Source of the DNA: Candidatus Falkowbacteria bacterium GW2011_GWF2_43_32
GTDB taxonomy: Bacteria > Patescibacteriota > Patescibacteriia > Patescibacteriales > UBA12465
Assembly: GCA_000999715.1 (NCBI GenBank)
Contig: LCGL01000001.1
Location: 387,139-451,138 of the forward strand
DNA length: 64,000 nucleotides
Direction of reading: 5' to 3'
Positions within the stretch are counted from its first letter, which is position 1; every line of letters begins with the position of its first letter. The notes below the pieces were generated by a model, which worked only from the letters and a program-made list of their open reading frames with translations, was not told where the DNA came from and did not search any database. The translations under genes were made by a program, and so were the position numbers. This document shows positions 17,666 to 45,234 of this stretch, in pieces.

Positions 17666-18652
17666 TTAGTCGATGAATTTCAAATAAATAGTTTTATGGC
17701 CTAATTCATTTTTTAAGATTTCTTTCCATTCCGGCACGACTTCGGACAATCGGTTGATTTTATTTTTGTCCAAAAATAGCGGATCAACCAATCGGGATTT
17801 CAGATGGATTATTTTATCATAATTCTTCTGGCTATCCTTAAATTTTATTTTATTATCAATGCGAGTAAACAAACGGGACAATTCCGGATCGCTATCATGA
17901 AAGACGGCCAGTTTGTCCAAAACTTCCCGATCGGTCGTATATAAATCAGCTTTCTCCAGATAACCGCGCTCCAAAGCGTGGCGCAAATATTCGCCGACCG
18001 CTTGATGCATGGCGCCGGCATGAGGCGCGGTATAATAGTTAGTGTTTAGCAGTCGAAAAAGTTCGGCATATTTTTTGGCCGTTGCCAAGTTTTTAAAAAT
18101 CCAGAAATTATCTTTGACGATTAAATTATTTAAAATTTCTTGAAGGTTATCGGTCGAAATATCCTCATAAGCGATAGCCGTACGCAAAGAATAGTCTATT
18201 CGGTCGGCGCACAAATCCGGCAGAGGCTTTTCTTTCAAGGGGAAATTTTTATCATCTAAAATATAATCCGGATCTAAATCATATTTCTTAAGAATCGCCG
18301 GTAAATCGGAGTTCCGCACGAACTCCGCGAAAATATTATCCTGATGATTCTGTTCTTTGCCGTCGCCGCCTTCTAAAATGTAGTCGATACTATGTGAAAA
18401 AGCCGAGTGGGAAACGTCATGAATCAGCCCGGAAACTTGTTCGGCCAGTGGCGCGTCGTACTTTTTTAACAGCCAGTAAACGCCAATGGAATGTTCCAAG
18501 CGATTGATAATTTGATCCGTTCGCCAATAAGGTTTGGTGTGGCCGCCCTGATCCACGCCGGCCAAGCGGCGTAAAAACGGCGAAGCGAGTAGCTCCAAAA
18601 TAATCGGTTCCGTGATATTTATTTGCCCGTAAGCGCGATCGAAGATGAGCAT
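17666..18652 (-). CDS. HD-domain metal-dependent phosphohydrolase
   Basis: RLEHSIGVYWL...GLIHDVSHSAFSH gives the H...HD...D pattern. 328 aa. Confidence 0.7.
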   Translation of the reverse strand: MLIFDRAYGQINITEPIILELLASPFLRRLAGVDQGGHTKPYWRTDQIINRLEHSIGVYWLLKKYDAPLAEQVSGLIHDVSHSAFSHSIDYILEGGDGKEQNHQDNIFAEFVRNSDLPAILKKYDLDPDYILDDKNFPLKEKPLPDLCADRIDYSLRTAIAYEDISTDNLQEILNNLIVKDNFWIFKNLATAKKYAELFRLLNTNYYTAPHAGAMHQAVGEYLRHALERGYLEKADLYTTDREVLDKLAVFHDSDPELSRLFTRIDNKIKFKDSQKNYDKIIHLKSRLVDPLFLDKNKINRLSEVVPEWKEILKNELGHKTIYLKFID

Positions 18653-18658
18653 ATATGA

Positions 18659-19564
18659 TTAATTGTTTGTTTTGCGGCTATTATACACAAAGTCTTCGTT
18701 GATTTTCCAAACACCTTTTTCCCGAAAAGCCGGGATATTTTGACGTCGAGCGGCATTAAGCATAGCCGGCGCAGATAAGCTATGAATTTTTGTGTATTCA
18801 GACAAAGTAATAATTTTTTGATTTTTAAGATAAGTGATTCTTTTATGCAATGATTCGGTCAAAGCCAAAGAAATAACTTTTTCCATTGTTTTAGTGTTCT
18901 TTTTGTCCCGATAAACCTCAAACGCTTTGTAATATTCTTTTTTCTCTCGGTCACGGATGGTAACTACCGGAAAACCGAGCTGTTGAAGTTGAAAACAAAT
19001 AAGAATCCGGCCAATCCGGCCGTTGCCGTCGTTAAAGGGATGGATATTTTCAAAATCCAAATGAAATTTAGCTACTTTGTCCAAGAAATAATTTGACAGG
19101 TCGCCGGTATATTCAAGAATTATAGTTTTAATCATCAATTTAGCCTGTTCCGGAGCCGGAGCGACGTATGTCCCGACTCGAACATATTCGCCGGTATTCC
19201 TAAAACGGCCGGCGATTTCATCATCTATGCCACCGATCAACATCTGATGTAAAAGTAAAATTAATTCTTCGTTGATTTCCGTCTCTCGGCCTTTGTTTCG
19301 GATATAACCGATGACTCGGGCTAAATTTTTTGCCTCATAGGCTTCGCGCAGAGAAACGTCTCTGGAAATTTCCATGTCCAGAAGAATTTTCTCGGTTTCT
19401 TTGAGAGTCAGAGTGGAATTTTCAATGGCATTGGAGTTATAGACGCTTTCCGGAACTTCTGCTTCGTCAAGTATAGTCAAAAGCGACTCTCTGCCTTGGC
19501 GAAGAGTATCAAATTCGTTTTTCAGGGCGGTAAGCCGGGTTTTTATCGGTTTGGTTATGGCCAT
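18659..19564 (-). CDS. Fic/DOC family protein
   Basis: Canonical Fic motif HPFNDGNGRIGR. Start placed at the ATG at 19564 (MAITKPIK). Confidence 0.85.
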   Translation of the reverse strand: MAITKPIKTRLTALKNEFDTLRQGRESLLTILDEAEVPESVYNSNAIENSTLTLKETEKILLDMEISRDVSLREAYEAKNLARVIGYIRNKGRETEINEELILLLHQMLIGGIDDEIAGRFRNTGEYVRVGTYVAPAPEQAKLMIKTIILEYTGDLSNYFLDKVAKFHLDFENIHPFNDGNGRIGRILICFQLQQLGFPVVTIRDREKKEYYKAFEVYRDKKNTKTMEKVISLALTESLHKRITYLKNQKIITLSEYTKIHSLSAPAMLNAARRQNIPAFREKGVWKINEDFVYNSRKTNN

Positions 19565-19688
19565 ATAATATATTGCAATTATATACCATTCACTAAAAAA
19601 TGTCAATACTTAGTGAATTTAACCTATTTTATAGCTATTTTCACTAAAAAATAGAGTTTTTATAAGCGATTTCTTTATTTAGTTTAGA

Positions 19689-19760
19689 AGTCTCCAGGGG
19701 GAGTTGAACTCTCATCTTGAGATCCGGAATCTCACATTCCATCCGCTGAGCTATGGAGAC
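19689..19760 (-). pseudogene. Degenerate second copy of tRNA-Arg(CCG)
   Basis: About 89% identical over about 70 nt to the tRNA at 17472..17546, with identical acceptor and anticodon arms. It has mismatches in the D stem (GCTC/GAAT) and T stem (GAGAG/CCCCC) and no encoded CCA. Confidence 0.5.
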
Positions 19761-22334: not shown

Positions 22335-23009
22335 TTAGCATGATTTGCCGGGATTTTCAATCGGTTTTAATGGTGTTTGTCGATGTTCAGAGCGGTAGAT
22401 GGGCAGAGTTTTAAAAGGCAGTTTTTTCAATAATTCCGTTTTGACCGCCAGCATAATGTTTTGCCGGTACCACCAGTCAACTTGTTGATTATGAGCCAGC
22501 TTGGCGCGAAAAGGATCCAGCAGTTCATAGCCGTGTCGACGAAAAAGATTCTGCCAATATTCCGGCCATTGTTCGTTCACGTGACCGATGCCAATGTCGC
22601 CTTGGCCGGGAATGGCGGCACTGAAAAGAATGATGTCGGCGGCAGTCGTTAAATTGCGAATAAACAGTTCCGCTTTATCGGCCGGTAAATGTTCGGCCAC
22701 TTCCAGGCTAATCGCCAAGTCAAATTTTTTGTTCAAGATTAGGGGTGCCGATAAATCATGCGCCAAAAAAGAGGCGGCGGGAATATATAGTTTTTTTATA
22801 TCAATATAGTCTCCGTCTATTCCCAAGATTTCTTTTGCGCCTTGTTCGGCAAAAGCTTTCAACCAAGTTCCCAGTCCGCAGCCGACATCAACCACGCTGT
22901 GCGGTTTTATCAATTCTAATACTAGGGGAATAATGATTTTCGCCGACTGATATGATCCCTCGGCTTGTCGGGCGAAGAAATTGGCATCGTAGATATTTGA
23001 TTCATACAT
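22335..23009 (-). CDS. Class I SAM-dependent methyltransferase
   Basis: Motif I VVDVGCGLGTW. Start placed at the ATG at 23009 (MYESNIYD); the longer ORF would run through the junction repeat and terminator. Confidence 0.7.
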   Translation of the reverse strand: MYESNIYDANFFARQAEGSYQSAKIIIPLVLELIKPHSVVDVGCGLGTWLKAFAEQGAKEILGIDGDYIDIKKLYIPAASFLAHDLSAPLILNKKFDLAISLEVAEHLPADKAELFIRNLTTAADIILFSAAIPGQGDIGIGHVNEQWPEYWQNLFRRHGYELLDPFRAKLAHNQQVDWWYRQNIMLAVKTELLKKLPFKTLPIYRSEHRQTPLKPIENPGKSC

Positions 23010-23205
23010 AGAGTTGTTTCTTTTATTATAACAAAAAATAAGGCATTTGACCTTATTTTTATCGGCGGTGTACTCGGGGTAAGTCCCCCTATATAGCAAC
23101 ATTATAAGACTTTTCCGAGAACTTTTCATTGGACCATCTTTTTTTTCTGATATTCCTATGTATAAATTTTGATTATCAGTAAAATCCATAATTTTATTGT
23201 ATAAG

Positions 23206-24270
23206 CTAGATCTTTACATACCTTGTTCCCCGTCCTCGGCCAATTGCTTTTATTTTTTTCAGTGCTATTAAGCGAGCTAACGCTTGACGTACGGTCGGCA
23301 TCAGTACGCCGGTCGCTTTCATAATATCGCTCGGACTGGCCTCAAGTACGCCGGAAATATAATGCCAGACTTCATATTGCTTAGGCGAGAGGGTATCTTC
23401 AACTTTTTCTTCTTCAAGATAAACTAAAGCCGCAGTCGCCTGTTCTTTGATAACGACGAGAAAAAAGTTAAGCCAAGGCGAAATAGTGGCTTGGTCGGTC
23501 TTAAAAGTTTCTTGTGATTTACGCAGAGCAATATAATATTCGTCTTTCCGTTTTTCGACTAATTGTTCATGTGAAACATATTGAATAAACTGGTAGCCGT
23601 GACGGAGCAAAAGAAGATTGGTCAGCACGCGAGAAAGACGTCCGTTACCATCTTCAAACGGGTGAATCTTTAAAAATTCAATAACAAAATTAGCAATAAT
23701 AAGTAGCGGATGAAAACGATTCTTTTCAAACGCTTCCGCCGTCCATTCCACCAGTGCCTGCATTTCTATCGGCGTCAGATAGGCCGGAGTCGTCTCAAAT
23801 ATAATTTTAGCTACCCGCCCGTCAGGCCCCATTACGCCGACGGCATTTTCTATTTTTTTATACTGGCCTCGCTGTCGCTCATCTTTACTAGAATATTTAA
23901 GAAGTTCGTTATGCAATGATTGAATAATGCTTTCCCTAAGCGGTAAAGCTTGATAATTATCGAAAATGTTTTGTAAGGTCTCAAGATATCCTTGCACTTC
24001 TTGTGAATCTCGATCAGCAAATTTAGAAATCGCCAAACCTTGCATAATCTTCTTAACTTCTTCATCATTTAGCCTCGAGCCTTCAATACGAGTTGAAGCA
24101 CCGGCCGAAGTGATCAGGGTCGATTTTTTAAGATTAGTAATCGCTTGAGGCGTCATCCGTAAACCCGACTTAAATTCTCCCCTAATACCGTCAATTTCAG
24201 CCAAAAGAGCCACAATGTGTGGTTCCGGGCTCTTAATACGATTATCAAATTTTAGAGTATTATCGTTCAT
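23206..24270 (-). CDS. Fic family protein with C-terminal winged-helix domain
   Basis: Fic motif HPFEDGNGRLSR. The C-terminal segment (PSDIMKATGVLMPTVRQALARLIALKKIKAIGRGRGTRY) is wHTH-like. Confidence 0.85.
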   Translation of the reverse strand: MNDNTLKFDNRIKSPEPHIVALLAEIDGIRGEFKSGLRMTPQAITNLKKSTLITSAGASTRIEGSRLNDEEVKKIMQGLAISKFADRDSQEVQGYLETLQNIFDNYQALPLRESIIQSLHNELLKYSSKDERQRGQYKKIENAVGVMGPDGRVAKIIFETTPAYLTPIEMQALVEWTAEAFEKNRFHPLLIIANFVIEFLKIHPFEDGNGRLSRVLTNLLLLRHGYQFIQYVSHEQLVEKRKDEYYIALRKSQETFKTDQATISPWLNFFLVVIKEQATAALVYLEEEKVEDTLSPKQYEVWHYISGVLEASPSDIMKATGVLMPTVRQALARLIALKKIKAIGRGRGTRYVKI

Positions 24271-24526
24271 AAAATTGTTTATAATTAATGATATATACTA
24301 TATAGCAGATTATAGCAGTAAATAGCAGATTAATCAAGTAGGCTTTATTTAGTAGATATAATTACTTACTTTGGAATAAATGATATTTATATAAAAATTA
24401 GCTAAAATATATAATTATTTACTATTATTTTGCTTACTCCCTCCCTAGCTTTGGAACTTTTGGGCATCAAAAAATAAGGCATTTGACCTTATTTTTATCG
24501 GCGGAGAGGGGGCGCACTGGGAATGG

Positions 24527-24931
24527 TTATCGCTTAATTTCCATGCCCGTGCCTGACAATTTAAAACCGAATTTTTTATAGAAAGGAATCAAAAATTCTT
24601 TATTTTCCGGAGACGCAAATACACCAATAGAGGTATAACCTTTATCGTTAACCTGACTAATTAAACTATTCATGATCATTTTTCCGATTCCTTTGCCTTG
24701 ATAATCTTTGTGAACGACAATATCGTACAGCATGCACATTATTCCGTCTTCTAGAATTCTTCCCATGCCAACCATTAAATTTCCATCCCAGACGCTATAA
24801 ACAAAAGAAGATTTTTCCAGAATCTCTTTCCATTTTTCTGGACCACGATGTCTGTGCCAACCAACCGAATCGCGAAGAGATTCTATTTGTTTAACATCTA
24901 GATTTTTTTTTGTGGATTCAATCAAGTTCAT
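24527..24931 (-). CDS. GNAT family N-acetyltransferase
   Basis: Acetyl-CoA motif A VHKDYQGKGIGKMIM. 134 aa. An extended -10-like TGATATAAT lies only about 8 nt upstream of the ATG. Confidence 0.8.
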   Translation of the reverse strand: MNLIESTKKNLDVKQIESLRDSVGWHRHRGPEKWKEILEKSSFVYSVWDGNLMVGMGRILEDGIMCMLYDIVVHKDYQGKGIGKMIMNSLISQVNDKGYTSIGVFASPENKEFLIPFYKKFGFKLSGTGMEIKR

Positions 24932-25051
24932 ATATATTAATTATATCACGACGTTCCAAAGTGATAAACTCCCTAGCAAAAAATAGCCCCAATATTAGGG
25001 CTATTTACAATCTGCGGAGAGGGTGGGACGTAGTTGGAACGGTTATAACTT

Positions 25052-25486
25052 TTAATTAGTTTCTATCTTCTTTAAATCTCTAGTGAGTTTTCTTAATTTA
25101 TTCGGAATTTTTAATTTTAAGAACTCATCTATACTAACCCATTTGTATAAGTCATGCTCCCAACTTATCAACAATTTCCCCCTAGAAATAAAACCTCTAA
25201 ATGCCAAAGTTACCCAATAATCACCTGATAAGGTAGTGTGAGCATCAACACCAAAAAGACTTATATTATTAACAACCAAACCAGTCTCTTCTTTAACTTC
25301 TCGAATTATAGACTTTAGAGGTTCTTCACCAAATTTAACATCACCCCCAGGAAGATCCCAGTATAAAGGGTTCGAAGGAGCGGTTTTCGTACGTCGCATA
25401 GTTAAAAATTTCCCATTCAGACCAAATACAAAAGCTTTTTGAGAAAATCCTATTACTCCCATTTTTGGCTGTTTTTTCTTAACCAT
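25052..25486 (-). CDS. NUDIX hydrolase
   Basis: Perfect Nudix box GGDVKFGEEPLKSIIREVKEETGL. Start placed at the ATG at 25486; the track's start is a TTG inside the junction repeat. Confidence 0.75.
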   Translation of the reverse strand: MVKKKQPKMGVIGFSQKAFVFGLNGKFLTMRRTKTAPSNPLYWDLPGGDVKFGEEPLKSIIREVKEETGLVVNNISLFGVDAHTTLSGDYWVTLAFRGFISRGKLLISWEHDLYKWVSIDEFLKLKIPNKLRKLTRDLKKIETN

Positions 25487-25731
25487 AAAATTAATAACAA
25501 AATCTTTTAAACATTCTTTTAACGGTTTTATTATATCATAGCGTTCCAAAGCAATAAACTCCCTATCAAAAAATAGCTCTAATATTAGAACTGTTTCTTA
25601 CTGCGGAGAGGGAGGGATTATATTGGAATGCGTGTTAACAATAAAGTTATTGATGTTATGGTCTGGAACAAATAAAAAAGGAAGACTATTGTTAGACTTC
25701 CTCTAAATTTTCCTTTAATCTTTTACTAAGC

Positions 25732-26136
25732 TCATCCTTTAAAATCCGGGTTATAAATTCCTTTTTTATATGCTTTATAGATATAGTTTCGGATAGCTTC
25801 AAGTTTCTTGAAGTAGGAATTGTCTACTTCAAAGATCTTTCCGTCTTTTACAAACTCTGTGGACGTCAAATTGAATGATACATCGTCAACTATAAAAGTT
25901 TTTTCGTTCCAAGAAATCTTGACATTTTCATTCTTTGATCCTGAATTATAGTCGTAATAACTAATAGCTATTGAAATGTTGCTGTCCGGATTCTTTTCTG
26001 AAACAGTTTTGTAAATTTCCTCTGACCAGTTTTTGCAGGTTCCAGGAATATTCAACATCATAAGTTGTGCTTTTAATGAAGTGTTAATCAACAATCCCAA
26101 AGCAACGATACTTAAAAGAATAAATACTTTTTTCAT
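25732..26136 (-). CDS. Hypothetical secreted protein
   Basis: Signal peptide MKKVFILLSIVALGLLINTSLKAQ. No recognisable domain. Confidence 0.55.
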   Translation of the reverse strand: MKKVFILLSIVALGLLINTSLKAQLMMLNIPGTCKNWSEEIYKTVSEKNPDSNISIAISYYDYNSGSKNENVKISWNEKTFIVDDVSFNLTSTEFVKDGKIFEVDNSYFKKLEAIRNYIYKAYKKGIYNPDFKG

Positions 26137-26407
26137 GATTCTACCTTTTTAAGATTAATAATAATTTGATTAATTACTAAATCCGCCTGTTTTCAGACAA
26201 TCTTAGTAATTAATCAAATTTAACCTTATTTTTTAAAGTTCTAAACTAACAAAAAAATATACCATACTGGTATACTTTTGTCAATCAGCGGGGTGTTAGG
26301 GACGCTATCTGAACTTTTTTGATGGATTATTCATAACATTAGGTAAATATGTAGTTTAGTTTTTGTTAAAAAAGGAGTCATTGATTGACTCCTTGTGTTT
26401 TTCACAA

Positions 26408-26695
26408 TTAGTATAAGAACAGTTTTAATTCTGTTTCTTCTATACAAATTTTTGCATTAATTCTGACAAGTTTCTTTCTTAAAGTATTTATACCAGGCTC
26501 GTACTTCCTTTCTGATAATACTTTTTCCAGACTTTCTTTTTCTTGCTTTAACTTGCCCAATTTTGCTGATTTTCTTTTTTCAATAATATACATATCACTT
26601 CCGGACAATGTGCTTACTATATTGACCATGATGAAGTGAGCAATTGTGCGGCACATAAATTCACTGACACCTAAAGAAAAAAATAATAAAACCAA
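26408..26695 (-). CDS. Hypothetical small protein (possibly the 3' part of a disrupted gene)
   Basis: 95-aa ORF with a hydrophobic N-terminus and a charged helix. A 43-aa hydrophobic ORF (26723..26854, minus) lies just upstream in another frame, so a frameshifted membrane protein is possible. Confidence 0.3.
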   Translation of the reverse strand: MVLLFFSLGVSEFMCRTIAHFIMVNIVSTLSGSDMYIIEKRKSAKLGKLKQEKESLEKVLSERKYEPGINTLRKKLVRINAKICIEETELKLFLY

Positions 26696-27106
26696 ACCAT
26701 TGAACCAGTTTAATTCCAGTTCTAATTGCAGTCAGGCATAGAAAAAACCTATCAGCAATATTGAAGTAAAAAAATAGATAAACATTGAATCTGATAATTT
26801 TCTGTAAAAATAATTAAACAAAAAATTTTCTTTCTTTTTTGTTACAGCATTCATGATGATTTCCTCCTTTTAATTATTAAAGTTCATATTTATATAACAA
26901 AAAATTATAATAAATTAATAACATTTTGTCAATCATCGGTTCCCACATTCTGAACTTAAGCTTAATTTAGCGCAAAAAAACAAGCATTCGAACTAAATAA
27001 TTTTATCTAATATTAGATTTAATAATGTTGTTTTTATAATAACCGTCCCTGACACCTTCAGTCAATTATAACTATTTTGTAACTCGATATTTTTGCTTAT
27101 ATAAAA

Positions 27107-27340
27107 CAAAAAATAAGGCTATAAACCTTATTTTTGGCGAACTGCGGAGAGGGAGGGATTTCCGCCCTCGCTCCGCTTCCGCGTCGCTCACTTGTCCCGG
27201 GTCAGCTCAATCGCATCCTCGCCGCTCGGAAAAGCGGCTCGGATTTGTTTTGCTTCTTCCGCCAGCCGGCGGACTGTTCGGATCCCTTTCGTCTTTTACG
27301 CATACAAAAATACAACCCAGAAGGGTTATATTTTTGTATG
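27107..27340 (-). repeat. GC-rich mini-element, copy A (direct repeat of 29603..29826)
   Basis: Near-identical to copy B apart from a 3-nt and a roughly 13-nt indel. Contents: terminator AAAAAATAAGGCTATAAACCTTATTTTT, the tRNA-Ser 3' core, about 150 nt of GC-rich sequence, and a 40-nt hairpin at 27301-27340. Confidence 0.85.
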
Positions 27341-27390
27341 CGGGGTGTCGTGGACGTTGTTAGAACTGGGATGTTTAAAAATACCAACAA

Positions 27391-28011
27391 TTAGCAATTT
27401 TCTGTAAACTTTTTAAACTCCTCAATATCTTCCTCGGAACCTAGTATACGAACTTGTTCTGGCTCAAAGACAACATATTCATCGGGATAAACAGACCTAT
27501 CATCTATACTCTCATCAGCAACGCCAATTATGCTGTCATAGCCATCTTTTTTTAATTGATCAAGATCGGCCTGCTGAATATTGGCCACATTTCTATAACT
27601 ATTATCGCCCACACCTATCTTTACACTTTTGGGGGATGTCATTTTTAACAACACGCTATACATTTGCTCTCCAAACCCACTGGCATATTCAATATCGCTA
27701 GTAAAATAGTGGCCTAAACCATACCTCATTTTCAATTCATCCCTACCTAATTTTTTATTGTATTTTGTATTATCGAATTTTTCTATTCCTTCATTTCCTT
27801 CATGATAAAGAATATTTTTTATTTTACTTTGAGGAAACACAACATCCAGATACTGAGAGTATTGCTCTTGGCTGCCAATAGAAGCTAACTCTGGATTTTT
27901 CTCAAAAACAAAATCAACCCCCTTTTTAATAGCAGCGGATTCTACCTTATTCTGATTATGTTCGGCTGTGAGATTAATTTCATCACCGATATTATTATGA
28001 AAAAAATTCAT
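27391..28011 (-). CDS. ADP-ribosyltransferase-like domain protein (phage/conjugative 'polyvalent protein' ART-type)
   Basis: QEQYSQYLDVVFPQSKIKNILYHEG..., GHYFTSD..., DSIIGV..., DEYVVFEPEQVRILGS. This is an H-Y-E-like arrangement that I recall from ART domains of polyvalent proteins. Not searched. Confidence 0.45.
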   Translation of the reverse strand: MNFFHNNIGDEINLTAEHNQNKVESAAIKKGVDFVFEKNPELASIGSQEQYSQYLDVVFPQSKIKNILYHEGNEGIEKFDNTKYNKKLGRDELKMRYGLGHYFTSDIEYASGFGEQMYSVLLKMTSPKSVKIGVGDNSYRNVANIQQADLDQLKKDGYDSIIGVADESIDDRSVYPDEYVVFEPEQVRILGSEEDIEEFKKFTENC

Positions 28012-28329
28012 ATTTTTATTAGAATTTTTATGTTTTTCTGATGTCAGGAAAACATCTGTGGATAATTAATCTTAAAAACAACAAAAAACTGTTAATTCTA
28101 TATTCTTCTATGATGTATATTATTCTTTATTAAATATACAAAAATTTATTTTTTATTACCTATATTAAGACAATTATAGCATAAATAGTGATAAAATCAA
28201 GATTGAAAAATTGAATTTGAAATGGGTTCGAACTAATAAAAATCCTCAAAAACAAAAGACGAAGTGAGCTTTTAGAGCTACTTCGTCCCTTACTGCGGAG
28301 AGGACGGGACGTAGTTGGAACGGTTTTGA

Positions 28330-28944
28330 CTAAACAATGAGTAAATTCTTTAATTCTCTTAAATTATGTATTATAAAATTTGGGCTGTTAAGGGCTAGCC
28401 TGGTTTCAGAAGTAAATCCCCAAGTTACTGCTACGGTGCTAATACCAACTAGTTTGCCTACCTCTATTTCATGATTTGTGTCTCCAATTATTACTGTTTC
28501 TGTTTTATTAAAGTTATATTTATTAATTAAACTTTTTACCGACTCAACCTTATCATGAACATTGGAAATAACTTCTAAAAATACTCCATTTAGACCGAAG
28601 ATAACAAGTTCTGAAGTTATCGTCTCAACCAAATCAGAGCTAATGACAACCATCTTAATGTTATTAGCTTGTAATTCTTTAATTAACACGGCAATATTTT
28701 GATAAGCCTTGGGGACACGTTCCATAATCGCTTTCTTATAAACCACTGTTTGCTGTTTGCTGGAGAGGGCTGGTAAGTATTTGTTATAAAACATCATATG
28801 GGGCTGAATCCATTCTTCTTTTAGTTCTTTTAAGCTCATTTGTCTAACACCAAAGAACTGAAATACTTTATTAACAGCAAAAAGATGGTCCTCCACAGAA
28901 TCTTTAATTACACCAGACCAATCAAATATAATATTTTTTATCAT
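28330..28944 (-). CDS. HAD-superfamily hydrolase
   Basis: Motif I IIFDWSGVI at the N-terminus, motif IV IGDTNHEIEVG. 204 aa. Confidence 0.7.
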   Translation of the reverse strand: MIKNIIFDWSGVIKDSVEDHLFAVNKVFQFFGVRQMSLKELKEEWIQPHMMFYNKYLPALSSKQQTVVYKKAIMERVPKAYQNIAVLIKELQANNIKMVVISSDLVETITSELVIFGLNGVFLEVISNVHDKVESVKSLINKYNFNKTETVIIGDTNHEIEVGKLVGISTVAVTWGFTSETRLALNSPNFIIHNLRELKNLLIV

Positions 28945-29135
28945 ATTTACTTATTATTTTTTGTTAATATAAGAATATCATATCGTTCCAAAACAATAAA
29001 CTTCATATCAAAAAATAGCCCTAACATTAGGACTGTTTCTTACTGCGGAGAGGGGGGGGTAGTTGGAATGATTTTAGATAAATAAAAAAGGAAGTCTGAT
29101 GTTTTAGCCTTCCTTTTAAAACCAGGCACAGCATT

Positions 29136-29420
29136 TTAGAACAACAATTTTTTTTGTTCCCAAAGTCTGTCCAATTTTTTTGACAAAAACCCGTTATAGA
29201 AATAACCAGATATAAGCAGAGCGGCAAATGCAGAGAGTGTAACAGTAATTGTTATTGCTGCGGTTTCGCCATGATCGATTATAGGTGTTGATAAGGCTTT
29301 GCAATATATAATGGCCACAATAGCAGCCGTTACAAAAAATAATATCCTTAGCCATTCTTTTGTTAATTGCACCTTGTTTTCTTTACGGCAGATTTCGTCG
29401 ATTTTGGTTTCTTTTTTCAT
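29136..29420 (-). CDS. Hypothetical small membrane protein
   Basis: 94 aa, two predicted TM helices, ATG start. Confidence 0.45.
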   Translation of the reverse strand: MKKETKIDEICRKENKVQLTKEWLRILFFVTAAIVAIIYCKALSTPIIDHGETAAITITVTLSAFAALLISGYFYNGFLSKKLDRLWEQKKLLF

Positions 29421-29602
29421 GATTTTATTTTTTTAATGTTCAATTTAATAACAATATTATAGCATATTTTATTAAATATGTCAATTGATGGATAAAATGA
29501 CCCACTTAAACTAACACTATTTATATTAATATTAGCTAAAATATAACATTATATAACAATATTTTTGCTTATTCCTTATTTAGTTTTGGAACTTTTTGAC
29601 AC

Positions 29603-29826
29603 CAAAAAATAAGGCTATAAACCTTATTTTTGGCGAACTGCGGAGAGGGAGGGATTTCCGCCCTCGCTCCGCTTCCGCGTCGCTCACTTGTCCCGGGTCA
29701 GACGCTCAACCGCATCCTCGCCGCTCGGAAAAGCGGCTCGGATTTGTTTCGCTTCTGACCTGTTCGCATCCCTTTCGTCTTTTACGCATACAAAAATACA
29801 ACCCAGAAGGGCTGTATTTTTGTATG
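29603..29826 (-). repeat. GC-rich mini-element, copy B, abutting the tRNA-Ser 3' end
   Basis: In tRNA sense the order is: terminator hairpin CATACAAAAATACAGCCC-TTCT-GGGTTGTATTTTTGTATG (29787-29826) immediately after the tRNA; about 150 nt GC-rich sequence; GAGCGACGCGGAAGCGGAGCGAGGGCGGAAAT; a second copy of the tRNA 3' end CCCTCCCTCTCCGCA (29640-29654, with the upstream AAAT to 29658); and a second terminator. Confidence 0.85.
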
Positions 29827-29914
29827 CGGAGAGGGAGGGATTCGAACCCTCGATGCCCTTTCGGGCATACCGGTTTTCGAGACCAGCGCACTAGACCAAC
29901 TATGCGACCTCTCC
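29827..29914 (-). tRNA. tRNA-Ser(CGA)
   Basis: Reverse complement GGAGAGG..CTGGT-CTCGAAA-ACCGG, long variable arm TATGCCCGAAAGGGCATC, T-arm GAGGGTTCGAATCCCTC, acceptor CCTCTCC-G. Confidence 0.9.
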
Positions 29915-38952: not shown

Positions 38953-39024
38953 GGTCCCTTCGTCTAGTGGTTAGGACATCAGGTTTTCATCCTGGTAACA
39001 GGGGTTCGATTCCCCTAGGGACTA
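38953..39024 (+). tRNA. tRNA-Glu(TTC)
   Basis: GGTCCCTTCGTCTAGTGGTTAGGAC..TCAGG-TTTTCAT-CCTGG..AGGGGTTCGATTCCCCT-AGGGACT-A. Confidence 0.9.
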
Positions 39025-39254
39025 CTAATTAAAAAGTGCTCAGCGTTAGCTGGGCATTTTTTAATTAGACGGCGTTAGCCGAGGGGAATCGGACGGGCGG
39101 CAGCGAACTAGATATTTGCCAGTAGGCAAATATCGCAGTGAGCGCCGACAAAAGCGAGCTAGCGTAGCTTTTGGCGCCGCCCAGGACAACGAGAGAGCGA
39201 GCTCCGCCAGCTGGCGGAGGTGAGCGAACGAGGCGGAATTCCCCTAGGGACTAC
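39025..39254 (+). repeat. GC-rich mini-element abutting the tRNA-Glu 3' end (same architecture as the tRNA-Ser elements)
   Basis: Terminator hairpin CTAATTAAAAAGTGCTCAGC-GTTA-GCTGGGCATTTTTTAATTAG directly after the tRNA. Then GC-rich sequence with several perfect hairpins (ATATTTGCC-AGTA-GGCAAATAT; CTCCGCC-AGCT-GGCGGAG). Then GAGCGAACGAGGCGGAATT plus a second copy of the tRNA 3' end ATTCCCCTAGGGACTAC (39238-39254), and a second terminator (39259-39297). Confidence 0.8.
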
Positions 39255-39348
39255 ATAATAAAAATACTCCAACAAAGTTGGAGTATTTTGATTTTTTAGG
39301 CTAACCCTGTTATATTTATAATATATTTTATTATGATTTTTGCCAACG

Positions 39349-39759
39349 ATGAAAAATAATTTAACTAAGGTGGCTTTTGTCTATCTTCAGCGGGACAATA
39401 AAATTTTGCTATTAAAAGAAGGCGGGCGGCTAGCCATGGGTTTGTGGTGTTTCCCCGGCGGGCACGTCGATGTTGGAGAAACTTTTGAACAGGCGGCCAT
39501 TAGAGAGGCCCTAGAAGAAAGCGGTTATCGGATCAGCTTGGGAAAAATAATATACAAATCATTAATGCTTAACTCAGAATATAAAGGCTCTAGGGGTGAT
39601 ACTAATGAGGTTGAATTAGCTATTTTTGAAGGAAATATTATTGGCGGTGAATTTAAAATTGATGATCAAGCCTTGGATTTAAAATGGTTAACTAAAGAAG
39701 AAATTCTTAAACTCCCTTTGCGCTGGAATTTAATACAAGATTTAGTTTTGACAAACTAA
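39349..39759 (+). CDS. NUDIX hydrolase
   Basis: Perfect Nudix box GGHVDVGETFEQAAIREALEESGY. Start at the ATG at 39349 (MKNNLTK). Confidence 0.75.
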   Translation: MKNNLTKVAFVYLQRDNKILLLKEGGRLAMGLWCFPGGHVDVGETFEQAAIREALEESGYRISLGKIIYKSLMLNSEYKGSRGDTNEVELAIFEGNIIGGEFKIDDQALDLKWLTKEEILKLPLRWNLIQDLVLTN

Positions 39760-39922
39760 TTTTAAATTACTAAAATTTCCGCCCATCTCTCAATTTCCCC
39801 AATAATCCCGTCAAAATTTTGGCAAATTTTAGACTTTAGGACTACATAAAAAAAATAACGTGCAATTTGCACGTTATTTTTTTTATGACGCCGTAGGCGG
39901 AAGAATCGAACAAATTAAAATA

Positions 39923-40573
39923 TTATTTCTCTAAAATCAATTCTCCGGTAGCTAACGCTTCTTCATGGGAAGCGCAGCGCGGCCATGGTCGCTCTAAAAC
40001 ATCCTCTGAATCAAAAATAAATATAAAGCAATCTCCGGGAGGGACTTTGCCATAGTTGTTTGTTAAAATATGGTCTTTCTCTTTCCAGATAATTCGTGAA
40101 TAAATAGACCACGGGTCTGTTCCGGTTTCAACACGATGATGTATTACGTGAAGCATGGCTTTCTTCCCATTACACAAATCGCCAGAATGAAACTCGCGTA
40201 CGCCAAGTTCAGTTGGTAAATAAAGATTGGATTCATGATCTACCGTATATTCAATAATGCTGCCAACTGCTTTAAAAAATGAACTTAATAAAACATTATC
40301 ATCACTTGTAACAAAACCATCAGCAATAACCTTGCCGGATTCACTCCGTGTAAACAGACCATTTCTTTTAGTTTTGAGATCTTCTTTGTCTATTTTTAAA
40401 AATATTTCTTCGCCACACGCAAATATACGGTAATCAACCCTTGATAAAAGCTCTTCCATTTTTTTACTTCGCTCTCTATTTTTTAATACAAAAAATATGC
40501 TTATACAAATAACCAGTGCCGCTAAAAGGCTTAAAATACCAAATTTATAAATATGATTTTTTATTAATTTCAT
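39923..40573 (-). CDS. Membrane-anchored hypothetical protein (candidate immunity/partner of the upstream YkuD-like protein)
   Basis: N-terminal TM anchor (FGILSLLAALVICISIFFVL) plus a roughly 175-aa extracytoplasmic domain. The start codon is 2 nt after the upstream stop, so the two are probably co-transcribed or translationally coupled. Confidence 0.5.
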   Translation of the reverse strand: MKLIKNHIYKFGILSLLAALVICISIFFVLKNRERSKKMEELLSRVDYRIFACGEEIFLKIDKEDLKTKRNGLFTRSESGKVIADGFVTSDDNVLLSSFFKAVGSIIEYTVDHESNLYLPTELGVREFHSGDLCNGKKAMLHVIHHRVETGTDPWSIYSRIIWKEKDHILTNNYGKVPPGDCFIFIFDSEDVLERPWPRCASHEEALATGELILEK

Positions 40574-40575
40574 AT

Positions 40576-41538
40576 TTAATCAATAATTTCAAGCACGCCT
40601 ACGCTTATAAAATCTCCTTTACGCGCTTTGATTAATTTGTCGTATATCTCATTCCATTTTTCAATTTCGATTACTGTGATGCAGCCAAGCGAAGCTCTGC
40701 CTGTATGCAAATATTTTTCACCTGAATGCCCAATCCTAAACCAAGTTTTAAATCTAGATGATATATTAACATAACTGCTTGGGTCTTTGTGCGGATAATC
40801 CGGCAACTCAATGTCATGCCAACCCTTTTTCCATGGCGAACCGGTATAATCCGTGGTCTGATATTTTTTATTATCGATGATCAATGCTTTTTGGGAAATA
40901 GAGTATTGTAAATGGATTAGCGGCTCATGTTCAATTTTTGACAGAAAACGTGACTCCTTATTTTCGTCCAAACTAACCGACCCTTTTTGTCCACGATATA
41001 TTCCTTCTAAAATTGTAAAATATTCGCGCCCGCCTTCAATATAATCTGATTGTATTTTTAGGAAGGCGGGGAGAGAGACCGCATCACCATCTACGATTTT
41101 AACTTTAAGCCAGCCGTTATCTATATCGGGTGTATATTTTATTGTATTTATGACTAATGCTTCAATGGTGACTTCAAAAATAGCAATGGACTTGCCCCAG
41201 GTCTTGCCAAAACGATTTTCCCGAAGCTCAATATTATAGGTGAAATTTTGCGGTTTAATATCACCCGTGTCGACTTTAATTGTCTTTTCTGTCTTCCCAA
41301 TATCATTAAATAATATATCTTTTTCGGTAACGGTAATTTTTACGTTAGCAGAAAATGTTTTTTGGTCAGAAGGAAAAGTACCTATCGATTGATTGAGCTC
41401 GGCGGTTTTTCTAGCCCGCATCCTTTTATCGACACGCAAGACCTGATCCAGTAGCTCTATGTCAATACGGATGTCGTTACCAATTGATTTGCCCGTATAT
41501 TTTATTTTTATCAATTTGAACTGAATTTTTTTAAGCAT
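40576..41538 (-). CDS. L,D-transpeptidase-fold (YkuD/Tlde1-DUF2778-like) domain protein, no signal peptide
   Basis: C-terminal ...WFRIGHSGEKYLHTGRASLGCITV..EKWNEIYDKL. This is a His ... S-x-G-C-(I/V) arrangement like the YkuD catalytic H/C motif and T6SS Tlde1-type toxins. The N-terminal roughly 200 aa are beta-rich and unrecognised. Confidence 0.5.
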   Translation of the reverse strand: MLKKIQFKLIKIKYTGKSIGNDIRIDIELLDQVLRVDKRMRARKTAELNQSIGTFPSDQKTFSANVKITVTEKDILFNDIGKTEKTIKVDTGDIKPQNFTYNIELRENRFGKTWGKSIAIFEVTIEALVINTIKYTPDIDNGWLKVKIVDGDAVSLPAFLKIQSDYIEGGREYFTILEGIYRGQKGSVSLDENKESRFLSKIEHEPLIHLQYSISQKALIIDNKKYQTTDYTGSPWKKGWHDIELPDYPHKDPSSYVNISSRFKTWFRIGHSGEKYLHTGRASLGCITVIEIEKWNEIYDKLIKARKGDFISVGVLEIID

Positions 41539-41554
41539 AAAGATTTTTTATTTT

Positions 41555-42034
41555 TTAAATTTTTAATACATCCTGCCTATTCAATATCGAGTGCAGCTCT
41601 TTAACTTTTATCAATAAGACTCTAGCATCTGTATGGGCTTGACTTAATTCTGCTTCCGAGATTCCGATAAAATCACCATATTCAATTCTATTTCTTTTCT
41701 TTCTCATTTGTTGGAATCTTTGAAATTCATTACTGAGCTCACCGTTAAGCAAGGTAGCGGCGGCATTAATTACGATATAATGATGCCCCTCTCCACTTGT
41801 TTTTGCTCTATATCCGTTAATTAACAATATGGCTTCACAGCACAATCTTATAGAATCATAGATGTTGTTATACACAATATCCTCGTCTCCAGTGCCTAAT
41901 CCGGACAAATTTTTATTTGCATAATTATATAACCTGTCTGCCTTCTCAATTTTTATTTCAACCCCTTTTAAGTTAAGCAAAAAAGGCTCAATAGAATTAT
42001 TATTCAACAGTGTTTGAATCTCTGGTAAAATCAT
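41555..42034 (-). CDS. HEPN-domain protein (toxin-like partner of the upstream nucleotidyltransferase)
   Basis: All-helical 159 aa with MRKKRNRIEYGD (the R-x-x-R-N-x-x-x-(H/Y) HEPN-type motif). Overlaps the upstream MNT gene by 35 nt. Confidence 0.55.
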   Translation of the reverse strand: MILPEIQTLLNNNSIEPFLLNLKGVEIKIEKADRLYNYANKNLSGLGTGDEDIVYNNIYDSIRLCCEAILLINGYRAKTSGEGHHYIVINAAATLLNGELSNEFQRFQQMRKKRNRIEYGDFIGISEAELSQAHTDARVLLIKVKELHSILNRQDVLKI

Positions 42035-42587
42035 ATGGGTCTCCTTTTAATTTAATTATTGGCGATAGAAATATATTAGATATAAAATTATTTTTTTCTT
42101 TTATCTTTTTAACAATTTCTTGACTGCTGTAAATATGATAATTTATTTCTCTGGCAATTTTTCTTTCTATAGAACTTATCATGGTAATAAGGGCATTTTG
42201 GTTTATGTCCCCAATTAACATTAAATCAATATCGCTATTATTATTTTCTGTTCCTTTGGCGATTGATCCGAAAACAAAAGCACATTCAACATTATCAAGT
42301 TTATCGACTAACTTTTTTAATTCATTTTCTAAGCCGAATGTTTTTGAAATAATACTTTTTATTTCCTCGTAAAGCGGGTGAGCTTTATTTAATTTAAAAA
42401 AACGCATATTTCCGCGACGCTCATCTAATAATATCCTATCTTCCACTAAATTATCCAAATATTTTTGATAATGACTCGGTTCTTTCTTTAAGTTTTTGGC
42501 AATTTCTCTAAAATAGTATTCCTTTTCTGGGTTTTTAAAAAATAGCTCGATGATTTCTCCACCGCCCTTTTTCAAGAAATTTAGCAT
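42000..42587 (-). CDS. wHTH + minimal nucleotidyltransferase (MNT) domain protein
   Basis: N-terminal wHTH-like segment (YYFREIAKNLKKEPSHYQKYLDNLVEDRILL). NTase motif FVFGSIAKGTENNNSDIDLMLIG (G-S-x10-D-x-D). Confidence 0.7.
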   Translation of the reverse strand: MLNFLKKGGGEIIELFFKNPEKEYYFREIAKNLKKEPSHYQKYLDNLVEDRILLDERRGNMRFFKLNKAHPLYEEIKSIISKTFGLENELKKLVDKLDNVECAFVFGSIAKGTENNNSDIDLMLIGDINQNALITMISSIERKIAREINYHIYSSQEIVKKIKEKNNFISNIFLSPIIKLKGDPYDFTRDSNTVE

Positions 42588-42943
42588 AGTATGTTTGATA
42601 ATTTTTATTTCAATTATTCTTGATTATATTATACACTATTTATGTACAATTGTACATACTTTGTATATGGTGGCTAACATTAGTAAATAATTACACATTT
42701 ATCAAGAGAAGGGTTAAATTATCCCAAAACTTCCCCCCACTTCTCAATTTCCCCAATAATCCCCTCAGAATTTTGGCAAATTTCAGACTTTAGGACTACA
42801 TAATAAAAATACTCCAACTTTTTGGAGTATTTTTATTATTTTGATAATTTATTTTTCCCTGTTGACAATTTTGCATAAAAGAGATATTCTTTTTTGAAAC
42901 ATAAATATCATAAACTATTGGTCATTAACAAAAATTTATAAAA

Positions 42944-43528
42944 ATGGAAACAAACGATGAGCCGCAAAAAGACGAAGTAACTCAGCGTGATTTAGAAATT
43001 CTCGAAATTTTTATTTCTAATTCATTGGAAGCCACTGTCAGGGCCAAAAAAGCGATTATTTGGTTTTTACGCCAAAGTAATTATTTGCAATCCAATATTG
43101 CCATGTCCATCTCATCACCTTCTAGGAAAAGCGATGAGTATAAATGGGCTCAGGAAGTTGGCATTGCTCTTCATGACATGAGATTGCCAATCAGGATAGA
43201 TGACCTCTTTTCTTTAATGAGGATTTCAAAACGTTTTGTTTCTCATTGTGGAGTGGCAAAGAAAATTAGTGATGATCTAATTGAACTTGAAACTGGTTGG
43301 GACAGTGAACATCAGAGACATGTCCCGGTAGACCTTCTTGGTTATACAATTTGGCTGGCTGACGAGTTTTATCAAAAAGAAGTTTATCTGATTGAATTCA
43401 AGCCCGCAGAAGTTAAAGTTGTAAAGCTACGAAAAGATCATTCGGATGTGATAGAATATCATGGTAAAGAGTTTTATGAAGATTGCGAAATTCCTAAAAA
43501 TCTCCGCGACGTTCAAGCAAGGTGGTAA
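42944..43528 (+). CDS. Hypothetical protein
   Basis: 194-aa ORF with an ATG start. It is the only gene in its cassette. No recognisable domain. Confidence 0.45.
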   Translation: METNDEPQKDEVTQRDLEILEIFISNSLEATVRAKKAIIWFLRQSNYLQSNIAMSISSPSRKSDEYKWAQEVGIALHDMRLPIRIDDLFSLMRISKRFVSHCGVAKKISDDLIELETGWDSEHQRHVPVDLLGYTIWLADEFYQKEVYLIEFKPAEVKVVKLRKDHSDVIEYHGKEFYEDCEIPKNLRDVQARW

Positions 43529-43777
43529 AAGTCTCAGCTCTTAACAAATAAAGTCTATATCCATGAGATAAGGTATAGACTTTTTATTTTAAGTAAGATT
43601 TATCAGCCAATGTCAGAATTTCCACTCACTTCTCGATTTCCCTAACAATTTTCTCAAAATTTTGAGAAACTTCAAAACCTAGGACTACTAACTAAAAAGA
43701 TCCAATATTTACCGGATATTGCTTAATTTGCTTTTCCGGTTTTTATTTATTAAACTTAAAAATATAGAATAAACAAT

Positions 43778-44253: not shown

Positions 44254-45234
44254 TTAGTTCAAGTTAACGAAAGCGTTAAATAAATAACCGATAATCATTA
44301 TATTGATTGTAGTAACTCCAAAGAAGTAAATAAGGAGTTTTACCTTCATCACTCTTTTTAGAATAAGAGCTTCCGGCAAAGACAGGCCGACTATCGCCAA
44401 CATGAAAGCCATCGCCGTCCCTAAGGGGATTCCTTTTTCCACCAAAGATTGCATAATCGGAATTACGCCCACGGCATTGGCATACATCGGCACGGCGACG
44501 ATAGTCGCCACCGGTACGGCTAAAAGATTTTCGGCGGTGATATAATTTTCAAAAAAACCGGCCGGCACGAAACCGTGGATGGCGGCGCCGACGGCAATAC
44601 CGATTAACACGTAAGGGGTGATTTTTTTTGTCATGGCTAAACCTTCTCGCCAAAATTTAAACAATAATTTTTTGCGAGACAATTTTTCCGTTTTTATTTC
44701 CAATTTGTCGTTTTTTATTTTCCGAACATAATCGGTCACGTATTTTTCCAATTTTAATTTGCTTAAAATAAAGCCGCCCACCACGCCCAATGAAACGGCG
44801 GCGACGACATAAAGAACCGTCACTTTCCAGCCGAATAAGCCGGCAAACAAAACTACCGCTACTTGATTAACCAATGGCGATACGATTAAAAAAGACAAGG
44901 TAACGCCCAAAGGAATGCCGGCCTCCAGAAATCCGATGAACAAAGGGATGGAAGAACAAGAACAAAAAGGAGTGATTGTGCCGAATACGGCGGCCAATAA
45001 ATAATCCAGACCATACCATTTGCGCGAAGCCAAAAAGTCGCGCAATTTTTCTATCGGCAAGTAATGGCGAATAATGGCCATTAAATAGTTAATCGCCAAG
45101 AGCAGTAATAATATTTTTAAAGAATCGTAAATAAAAAAATTAACCGAGTCGCCTAAATGAGAGCCCTTAATTAAATTGAAAAGGCCATAAGATAAGTAAT
45201 CGGCCGTTAATTCTAAAGGGTAAAAAATGTTCAT
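44254..45234 (-). CDS. Predicted permease (COG0701/ArsP_1-type)
   Basis: Polytopic membrane protein with the family-typical TPFCSCSSIPLF motif. Confidence 0.7.
   Translation of the reverse strand: MNIFYPLELTADYLSYGLFNLIKGSHLGDSVNFFIYDSLKILLLLLAINYLMAIIRHYLPIEKLRDFLASRKWYGLDYLLAAVFGTITPFCSCSSIPLFIGFLEAGIPLGVTLSFLIVSPLVNQVAVVLFAGLFGWKVTVLYVVAAVSLGVVGGFILSKLKLEKYVTDYVRKIKNDKLEIKTEKLSRKKLLFKFWREGLAMTKKITPYVLIGIAVGAAIHGFVPAGFFENYITAENLLAVPVATIVAVPMYANAVGVIPIMQSLVEKGIPLGTAMAFMLAIVGLSLPEALILKRVMKVKLLIYFFGVTTINIMIIGYLFNAFVNLN

Follow-up and report, generated by a model that had tools for sequence, protein, structure and literature searches.

A cassette array downstream of tRNA-Glu in a Candidatus Falkowbacteria genome and its probable origin from elements carrying a large serine recombinase

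The genome of Candidatus Falkowbacteria bacterium GW2011_GWF2_43_32 contains, within the 64,000-nt stretch analysed here (contig LCGL01000001.1, positions 387,139 to 451,138; the window), a tRNA-Glu(TTC) gene whose 3' end recurs downstream on the same strand with small groups of genes between the copies. The initial annotation, made from the letters of the window, described an array in which copies of the tRNA end, conserved arms and terminators separate discrete cargo units, and argued for a dedicated mechanism. The locus raises the question of what these repeats are and how the gene units came to lie between them. In our judgement the array most probably represents the junction scars and left-behind cargo of Patescibacteria elements that use a large serine recombinase (LSR) to enter the 3' end of tRNA-Glu. 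Comparison with relatives showed, at the level of sequence, where the arm comes from, that the elements have a circular and an integrated form, that they are linked to tRNA-Glu and swap the recombinase tail on integration at the tRNA end, that attR is composed of arm, core and former tRNA terminator, that tandem states occur on the chromosome, and that cassettes bounded by the core are exchanged between genomes.

The repeats and the origin of the arm

Repeat searches, shuffle statistics and an arm profile scan were run over the 64-kb window. The tRNA-Glu(TTC) gene (38953-39025, forward strand, as are all arms and terminators below) is intact (ARAGORN; Rfam, 63 bits) and has tsaD, tRNA-Cys and ychF as genomic neighbours. 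Its 3' end together with the following terminator is the predicted primary attachment site (attB1), which is unoccupied in the window. This terminator, T0 (39026-39067; A-tract, hairpin and T-tract; -24.8 kcal/mol, z -10.2), forms the B' side of attB1, and in L058 and L069 (loci outside the window carry L numbers) it was found 3' of arm and core, there forming the junction attR. Further downstream lie three arms of ~75 nt, each with the core ..GGACTAC at its end and each interpreted as an attR scar: arm 1 with its core at 39771-39845 (nhmmer 1.6e-22; antisense translation VVLKSKICQNFDGIIGEIERWAEILVI and a stop), arm 2 at 42725-42799 (9.7e-21; VVLKSEICQNSEGIIGEIEKWGEVLG and a stop), and arm 3 at 43614-43688 (1.8e-16; VVLGFEVSQNFEKIVREIEK and a stop). 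Arm 3 is the oldest recognisable scar and is partly decayed.

The repeats stood up to statistical scrutiny. They form an 86-nt family (39772-39857; 42726-42811, 91% identity; 43615-43700, 71%), and the core TAGGACTAC occurs three times in 64 kb, always within an arm copy, where 0.06 occurrences were expected from shuffles. An arm 23-mer was confined to the three arm sites (0 expected), and the arm profile matched the whole window at those sites only. The core starts are at 39238, 39837, 42791 and 43680. The tRNA end as such recurs less fully than had been described: the copy at 39238-39254 is a perfect repeat of the 17-nt tRNA-Glu 3' end, ATTCCCCTAGGGACTAC, and the three arm-linked copies share ~8-11 nt with it.

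A simple terminator scan recognised one of the five post-core hairpins, so each was folded individually. Every copy is followed by a hairpin and T-run: strong A-tract/hairpin/T-tract folds were obtained for four of the five (z -6 to -10), with the fifth (43691-43750) folding more weakly (z -3.1). Apart from T0 the series comprises terminator TA (39255-39297), which is of B' type, opens the NUDIX cassette and is near-identical to 42801-42842; TB (z -7.3), which opens the four-gene cassette and together with a truncated 5' fragment of a GC-rich element (39887-39912) spans 39846-39912; TA' (42800-42842, B' type, z -8.6), which opens the orphan cassette; and a weak terminator-like B' sequence after the last core (43689-43750), which resembles the post-core hairpin of L039 and L046. 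The near-identity of two terminators, already noticed in the initial annotation, extends to 26 identical nucleotides covering the core end and terminator start (39248-39273 vs 42793-42818).

The source of the arm was found in a recombinase gene. In three loci, L043, L038 and L033, the gene for a protein of 507-533 aa has a rolling-circle Rep gene beside it, which Pfam identified in L043 as a REP_ORF2-G2P initiator. The L043 protein combines the Pfam domains Resolvase (PF00239, 1.5e-36), Recombinase (PF07508, 6.2e-11) and Zn_ribbon_recom (PF13408, 9.2e-08) and is therefore assigned to the LSRs; it also contains the motifs YRVSTEDQ and DRLSR. In L043 and L038 the element begins within the last nucleotides of the tRNA, and the LSR gene is the first gene after tRNA-Glu, on the opposite strand, with its 3' end overlapping the tRNA in antisense; in L033 the contig stops before the 3' end of the gene. 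The LSR of the integrated state ends in ..SSPIVV/PRGIEPLLPG and a stop, where PRGIEP.. is the antisense of the tRNA T-arm (full tRNA-antisense tail ..VVPRGIEPLLPG and a stop).

At a second type of junction, seen in L068, L036, L064 and at the end of L038, arm and core are followed by the LSR gene body rather than by a terminator (attP-type junction). The antisense frame there runs unbroken through the core into the arm (..ASASSSIVV/LKSEISQNFDGIIGEIEKWAEVL and a stop). Since this frame is continuous across the core, the arm corresponds to the last ~25 LSR codons, and attP lies inside the LSR gene. As judged from these alignments, the arm reads in antisense as the closing ~25 codons (VVLKSEISQNFDGIIGEIEKWAEIL and a stop) of an LSR gene of ~510 aa and was stranded at attR. 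This replaces the earlier proposal of a dedicated recombination arm of ~60-75 nt. The frame is open in 42 of 47 distinct arms, in which variability by codon position was 0.22 at the third position vs 0.14 and 0.16 at the other two. The sites attB (..CCCCTAGGGACTAC followed by TAATT..) and attP (..ACTTTAAGACTAC followed by TATCG..) have about GACTACTA in common, and so short a core agrees with the 5-8 bp reported for serine integrases (PMC8092301).

A protein search returned 245 LSR homologues at E <= 1e-30, from Falkowbacteria, Woesebacteria, Buchananbacteria or 'Patescibacteria group' where a source was named. Among the best 120, 104 end in a tail that is antisense to a tRNA T-loop, in about 50 variants (e.g. 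RGIEPLLPG, TGIEPVLPH, RRIELLLPG, GGIEPPLPG, TGFEPV..), a variety that implies many different tRNA targets. Four of the same 120 (P0035, P0062, P0070, P0090) instead end in the native tail, recognisable by ..I.EI.[KR]W, a motif which in its longer form, ..[FL]..[IL]I.EI.[KR]W.., is shared by the native-tail homologues and all arms. One native-tail member, its tail intact, comes from L100, a contig of 10,823 bp that lacks a tRNA and whose ends overlap by 30 nt; it encodes the LSR, an N6/N4 methyltransferase, a ResIII helicase and DUF5655; no Rep homologue was found in it. L100 is probably a circular, excised family member with a restriction-like or defence module. With its native tail on one side and the integrated tails on the other, both free and integrated states of the family appear to be represented.

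Elements with a tyrosine integrase are the usual users of tRNA genes, and the repeats could in principle have been made by them. Such an element does occur in this setting: in L073 (11500-21331) a tyrosine-integrase element comes first after tRNA-Glu(CTC), upstream of an LSR and Rep element and then a Fic cassette, so two recombinase classes use the same tRNA. The exact 17-nt repeat at 39238, moreover, exceeds the typical length of a serine-recombinase core. The tyrosine-integrase element of L073, however, left a 45-nt tRNA repeat reaching from the anticodon loop to the 3' end, and nothing like it is present in the window. No tyrosine integrase is among the recorded Pfam matches for the genes called between 7,666 and 48,789, and three arms are demonstrably LSR gene ends. 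We regard this origin of the repeats as very improbable.

Arms and cassettes in other genomes

A metagenome collection was scanned with a degenerate arm motif from which the core had been left out, and 49 loci were obtained. The entire ~75-nt arm is conserved in all 49, and the core (..GACTTTAAGACTAC) and following hairpin are present in each except for a truncated copy in L044. Many of these loci contain 2-3 arms in one orientation, 0.7-3 kb apart. All 11 loci with sufficient flank have a tRNA-Glu gene (TTC or CTC) upstream of the arms and in matching orientation; the remaining loci are mostly short, and in a few longer ones without tRNA-Glu the array runs off the fetched sequence. Two leads were discarded. 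The L044 arm was checked for continuation into a gene on the opposite strand and proved to be truncated by a rearrangement beside a NUDIX fragment. Six matches to a 19-nt arm pattern in viral contigs were attributed to chance because similarity stops at the pattern; a search of the viral contigs for LSR relatives found none.

This distribution bears on whether arm and terminator could be a dispersed repeat of the ordinary intergenic sort, or the gene of a small RNA, with no role in recombination. The length of the arm (~75 nt, about that of a tRNA), its high conservation and the terminator that always stands next to it would suit such a gene. The arm is confined to the tRNA-Glu array within the window, though, and in all 11 metagenome loci where the flank suffices it has tRNA-Glu ahead of it on the same strand. 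Read in antisense, it has an open frame that passes without interruption into that of the LSR. The arm has no Rfam match; the credible matches from Rfam between 22 and 45 kb at E <= 1 were tRNAs only, with none for the arms or the GC-rich element described below. As judged from its letters, the C/T/A-rich arm has no evident self-complementarity beyond an inverted repeat of 10-16 nt. The explanation is already contradicted and is given next to no credence, as is its variant of a dispersed repeat similar to repetitive extragenic palindromic (REP) sequences, which the initial annotation had named as its own refutation: the three copies in 64 kb all lie in the array, which argues against REP-like dispersal within the window, and the tie to tRNA-Glu excludes it for the metagenome loci. 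A degenerate tRNA of similar length was also considered for the arm, which shows no similarity by eye beyond the 3' end and is not called by ARAGORN or Rfam.

The cargo between the repeats of the window consists of compact units, with arms starting 12-90 nt past the cargo stop codons and a terminator directly 3' of each core; G+C is 28-36% over 40-44 kb against a background of ~44%. The first gene cassette holds a NUDIX hydrolase gene (39340-39759, forward strand; Pfam NUDIX 5.8e-18; PADLOC candidate PDC-S07). The second (39923-42587, reverse strand) holds four genes, coding for a 216-aa membrane-anchored protein, a 320-aa protein, a HEPN protein and a winged helix-turn-helix MNT nucleotidyltransferase (Pfam; PADLOC PDC-M05A/B). 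The HEPN/MNT and NUDIX genes thus match the candidate defence families PDC-M05 and PDC-S07. The third is a single 194-aa orphan gene (42944-43528, forward strand) for which family searches, Pfam and PADLOC among them, gave no match, and whose homologues (42-82% identity) are present in other Patescibacteria. In one of these genomes (L021, 10640-10909, reverse strand) the homologue lies immediately 3' of tRNA-Arg(GCG), from which it is separated by a short GAGGCGG/GAGCGA-rich stretch reminiscent of the GC-rich elements. The description of the intervals as discrete cargo units is borne out for these three; the fourth, a 210-bp GC-rich unit, belongs to a separate structured family. No LSR or Rep pseudogene fragments were seen within the window units. 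The array may continue in eroded form past 43690, where a 154-aa gene and an ArsP gene (44254-45234) follow, because in L055 (3668-5442) an ArsP-permease operon, 82% identical to the window ArsP, sits inside an array before a degraded arm.

For evidence of movement, 300 bp on either side of every arm were compared. The same cassette end is followed by unrelated units in L035, L048, L059 and L070 (88-97% identical) and in L028, L029 and L070; conversely, unrelated cassettes stand before one and the same downstream unit in L027, L033 and L072, and again in the window from 39846 onward compared with L046, L047 and L063. In these alignments homology starts or stops exactly at GACTAC; in the comparison with the window it resumes at the 216-aa gene, and L046 has a longer GC-rich piece. 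The four-gene module recurs as a block between arms in five loci (L047, L040/L050, L063 and L046; 51-88% aa identity), and in L047 it is the third unit after tRNA-Glu(CTC). Variation in cassette order, which had been put forward as a check, is therefore found between genomes, where cassettes recur in other orders with breaks at the core.

Exchange of this kind could also result if a recombinase encoded elsewhere inserted cassettes singly at the tRNA end, in the manner of an integron, with the arm as an attC-like site. Cassettes of 1-4 genes without a recombinase, a conserved boundary site and an order that differs between genomes all resemble integron arrays, as does L058, in which a looped 1.1-kb unit consists of one gene, an arm and a GC-rich element. 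Integron-like capture is nonetheless improbable. Far from being an independent site, the arm forms the coding end of the recombinase gene that autonomous elements carry, and it shows no attC-like imperfect palindrome beyond its short inverted repeat. The tRNA is not flanked by an integrase with adjacent attI and promoter. A circle with arm, core and terminator would carry attR, not attP, and would need an attL partner and a directionality factor.

Contigs from the same strain were found through exactly identical TsaD or HD proteins (an ENA scaffold, a JGI contig and the metagenome-assembled genome (MAG) GCA_003489845.1). No usable differences in the order of cassettes came from them; at the repeats they show nothing but breaks in the assembly and N-padded joins, the short-read contigs ending inside repeats and one MAG having N-padded joins at cores. 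Such breaks and joins fit repeat-induced assembly ambiguity or heterogeneity and prove neither. In L002 (DNKM01000011.1) the joins lie at core and terminator (1266-1267 and 576-577), and at one of them the terminator variant is nearer to the copy at 42801 than to that at 39255, a hint either of an arrangement from which the NUDIX unit and the four-gene unit are missing or of an artefact of scaffolding. L058 is a 1,228-bp contig with an exact 123-nt terminal overlap ending precisely at the core; it contains arm, terminator, GC-rich element and one 246-aa protein that resembles a SAM-dependent methyltransferase by eye.

Proposed formation of the array

On the reading we prefer, that of LSR elements entering tRNA-Glu, the free element would be a circle with attP inside the LSR gene, about 25 codons short of its stop. 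On integration the LSR gene body would come to adjoin the tRNA on the opposite strand and gain an end of ~10 codons from the tRNA antisense, and the native tail of ~25 codons, together with the short shared core GACTAC(TA), would end up at the opposite end of the element. The far junction, attR, would then consist of arm, core and the former terminator of the tRNA, and units would take the form seen in the window, [B'-type terminator - cargo - arm - core]. We infer that an element inserted upstream of older scars may, on excision, recombine with a distal attR and take the cassette in between along with it, and that after integration elsewhere, excision with the proximal attR may leave this cassette beside a regenerated attB. 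Looping-out by homologous recombination between repeats would be an alternative way of adding or dropping cassettes. If cassettes were picked up and dropped by an upstream element, the newest units should be nearest the tRNA. This route would fit the compact units, the lack of recombinase fragments and the B'-type terminator that opens every unit. The tail swap itself may be a built-in switch of LSR activity or direction.

Several points weigh against this account. Simple integration followed by excision leaves no scar, and recombinase-less cassettes that open with a B'-type terminator would require the additional step just described. After a first integration the junction at the tRNA is attL, not attB, so repeated LSR integration is not trivially expected; chromosomal attP-type junctions (L038, L036, L068) indicate that tandem states exist and do not reveal the route by which they form. 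In the window, tblastn found neither LSR nor Rep in the 64 kb searched. The array here may for that reason be inactive: it is either a fossil in this strain or acted on by a recombinase encoded elsewhere. The sole hints of heterogeneity in the source strain at this locus are the assembly breaks and N-padded join at cores, and L058 may represent a circle of 1.1 kb, a tandem copy or a loop made in assembly across two GC-rich repeats. Finally, the GC-rich element and the 17-nt repeat are not accounted for by LSR chemistry.

Some of these points would be expected if complete LSR elements had integrated separately and later lost recombinase and Rep, their cassettes never having been mobile and those shared with other genomes being due to vertical descent or ordinary homologous recombination. 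The absence of a recombinase from the window, the stops or truncations in arm 3 and several metagenomic arms, and the ArsP operon before a degraded arm in L055 are compatible with such decay. It would, however, have to proceed by deletions that restore a terminator directly after the core each time and leave compact cassettes with no recombinase or Rep pseudogene fragments, and cassettes with differing neighbours are 85-97% identical with breakpoints exactly at the core. Independent decay is considered unlikely, and among the explanations other than the accretion and exchange of LSR elements it is the one that we take most seriously.

The GC-rich structured element (39067-39237; fold z -10) lies between T0 and the exact 17-nt copy (39238-39254), which closes it. 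It belongs to a family of ~150-190 nt with covarying helices. Besides the copy at tRNA-Glu (39067-39254), the window has two more at 29640-29790 and 27143-27343 (reverse strand, tRNA-Ser), and L062 has one at 6342-6491 (tRNA-Cys); in other genomes, members adjoin tRNA-Glu, tRNA-Ser and tRNA-Cys. Relatives that follow either tRNA and terminator or arm, core and terminator were found in L039, L040, L047, L048, L055, L056, L058, L060, L062 and others. Copies share a layout with an inverted cognate T-arm near the 5' end (AGGGGAATCGGAC at tRNA-Glu in the window), a conserved interior and, closing the 3' side, the last nucleotides of the cognate tRNA repeated directly (17 nt in the Glu type). With RNAalifold, at least one compensatory change was found for each of the 14 predicted pairs, which include a long-range helix (GGTTGG with CCAACC, GGGCGGC with GCCGCCC, GGTCAGA with TCTGACC). 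In the window, L047 and L062, every cassette lies beyond the GC-rich element, and two of the LSR homologues (P0022, P0039) have tails that read antisense through such an element, implying integration at a tRNA-end copy of this kind. These two observations suggest that the terminal tRNA copy of the element and the following terminator may serve as a second attachment site (attB2). Three other identities were rejected for the element: a coding sequence (antisense translations are not conserved between copies, with stops in some), a part of the LSR and Rep elements (nhmmer found none inside L043, L038, L033 and L073) and a single-strand replication origin (a TAGCGT loop motif in the window copy is not conserved in others).

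The initial annotation had reported an array of the same kind at tRNA-Ser(CGA) (29826-29914, reverse strand), which is followed by seven further copies of its own 3' end, and this parallel was upheld. The array (23000-29914, reverse strand) consists of arms and single-gene cassettes for Fic, GNAT, NUDIX, ART-PolyVal, HAD and small membrane proteins. When the conserved Ser arm was scanned across species-representative genomes, 26 loci were found, in MAGs named Falkowbacteria, Parcubacteria, Saccharimonadales and Patescibacteria, with about nine labelled as uncultured Gammaproteobacteria and one as Bacillota. An upstream tRNA-Ser (TGA, GCT or CGA) is present in nine of the 26; six loci carry an LSR that is only 27-34% identical to the Glu LSR, accompanied in five cases by Rep. 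The Ser-type LSR of L080 ends in ..DSV/RRGRDSNPG.., the antisense of tRNA-Ser, and at the attP-type junctions of L097 and L095 the LSR end, ..RPV/LRRGWDVVGT.., is the antisense of the Ser arms in the window. The Ser arms are thus the native tail of a second LSR family, ~32% identical to the first and seen with a Rep beside tRNA-Ser in MAGs named Falkowbacteria and Parcubacteria, and the two arrays of the window derive from two related, tRNA-specific recombinase families. Elsewhere in the window, genes for Fic (18659-19606) and for an HD-domain protein (17666-18652) are enclosed by a pair of tRNA-Arg(CCG) genes (17472-17546 and 19689-19760, reverse strand). The T-stem of the upstream copy is mispaired (GAGAG..CCCCC), and the pair may mark a third insertion that duplicated the tRNA.

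Relation to known systems and meaning

Insertion takes place at a tRNA end with the tRNA left intact, and the units are bounded by direct repeats of that end; a recombinase gene stands next to one junction in L043, L038, L033 and L073, and next to none in the window. The mechanism class is already known, that of integrative elements at tRNA genes accreting in tandem. Of the dedicated mechanism first proposed, what survives is a site-specific and clade-wide process (49 metagenome loci, 26 tRNA-Ser-arm loci, shuffling bounded by the core) and not the decay of a single island.

By analogy, the closest working counterparts appear to be the composite islands of the staphylococcal cassette chromosome (SCC). 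These include psi-SCC units without recombinase and up to eight copies of the integration site per island (PMC3900703). In SCC, with CcrAB or CcrC acting at orfX/rlmH, as here, the LSR targets the 3' end of a conserved gene, which survives the insertion, and elements build up in tandem as units bounded by short integration-site repeats, some of them recombinase-less. The systems differ in target and host, rlmH/orfX in staphylococci as against a tRNA gene in Patescibacteria, and in the enzyme, here a single LSR of a presumably different lineage; the likeness is one of function. The units described here are also much smaller (0.6-3 kb), the autonomous members carry a rolling-circle Rep, and attP lies inside the recombinase gene, the tail of which is swapped on integration.

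Among systems linked to tRNA genes, the tycheposon islands of Prochlorococcus seem closest. New arrivals at the tRNA push older ones inward there, earlier events can be told from incomplete tRNA copies and decayed remnants, and the cargo serves adaptation or defence; tyrosine recombinases are found in 910 of 937 elements, with att repeats of ~40 nt (10.1101/2020.12.28.424599). Integration into a tRNA gene and the displacement of older remnants are shared with the arrays of this study, which differ in using a serine recombinase, in a core of ~8 nt and in a repeated arm that is the recombinase's own coding end. In a mycobacterial survey, serine integrases were found to insert into open reading frames, and tRNA sites were used by tyrosine integrases throughout (PMC8092301). 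An LSR lineage that targets tRNA genes and carries attP in its own gene is unusual.

Site-specific accretion has also been described for the cis-mobilizable elements (CIMEs) and integrative and conjugative elements of Streptococcus thermophilus, a system with conjugative elements and a tyrosine integrase at the fda locus. As with CIMEs, recombinase-less modules flanked by att sites stand beside an autonomous element and would move via alternative att partners. Genes that span attP are known for tyrosine systems and repressors; integrase genes of this kind are exemplified by Mx8 intP/intX and the SSV1-type integrases. In the integration-dependent immunity of mycobacteriophages, integration alters the 3' end of a phage gene, and the prophage protein has a different C-terminus (PMC8092301). 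Those are tyrosine integrases or repressors, whereas here an LSR would exchange a conserved predicted tail for tRNA antisense. With integrons the arrays share ordered, small and often single-gene cassettes with a conserved end site and an order that varies between genomes; they differ in lacking IntI, attI and attC, in being anchored on a tRNA gene, and in cassettes with their own terminators and probably their own promoters. No integrase adjoins the tRNA in the window, and the arm is a coding remnant, not an attC palindrome. In the open-access literature searched, the coverage of which was incomplete, we came across neither a description of this LSR family nor one of serine-recombinase arrays anchored on tRNA genes in the Candidate Phyla Radiation (CPR).

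A wider proposal is put forward tentatively and with less than even confidence: that these arrays reflect a Patescibacteria-wide exchange system resembling SCC and integrons, in which a large family of tRNA-specific LSRs would shuttle small recombinase-less defence or toxin cassettes from genome to genome by a choice among several attRs, the tail swap would let the recombinase sense its own state and switch its activity or direction, and the GC-rich element would offer a secondary landing pad. LSRs with short, well-defined and highly conserved targets are possible genome-engineering tools, and the swap of the tail on integration suggests a regulatory device. The genomes of CPR/Patescibacteria are tiny, and little has been described of the mobile elements in them. 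The LSR family examined here seeds compact arrays of defence-type cassettes (HEPN/MNT, NUDIX, Fic, Abi, ART), and the results point to a major route of gene flux in these bacteria. Since the family of LSRs at tRNA ends is large and its arrays compact, tRNA-linked arrays could be a main source of strain-level variation in the CPR.

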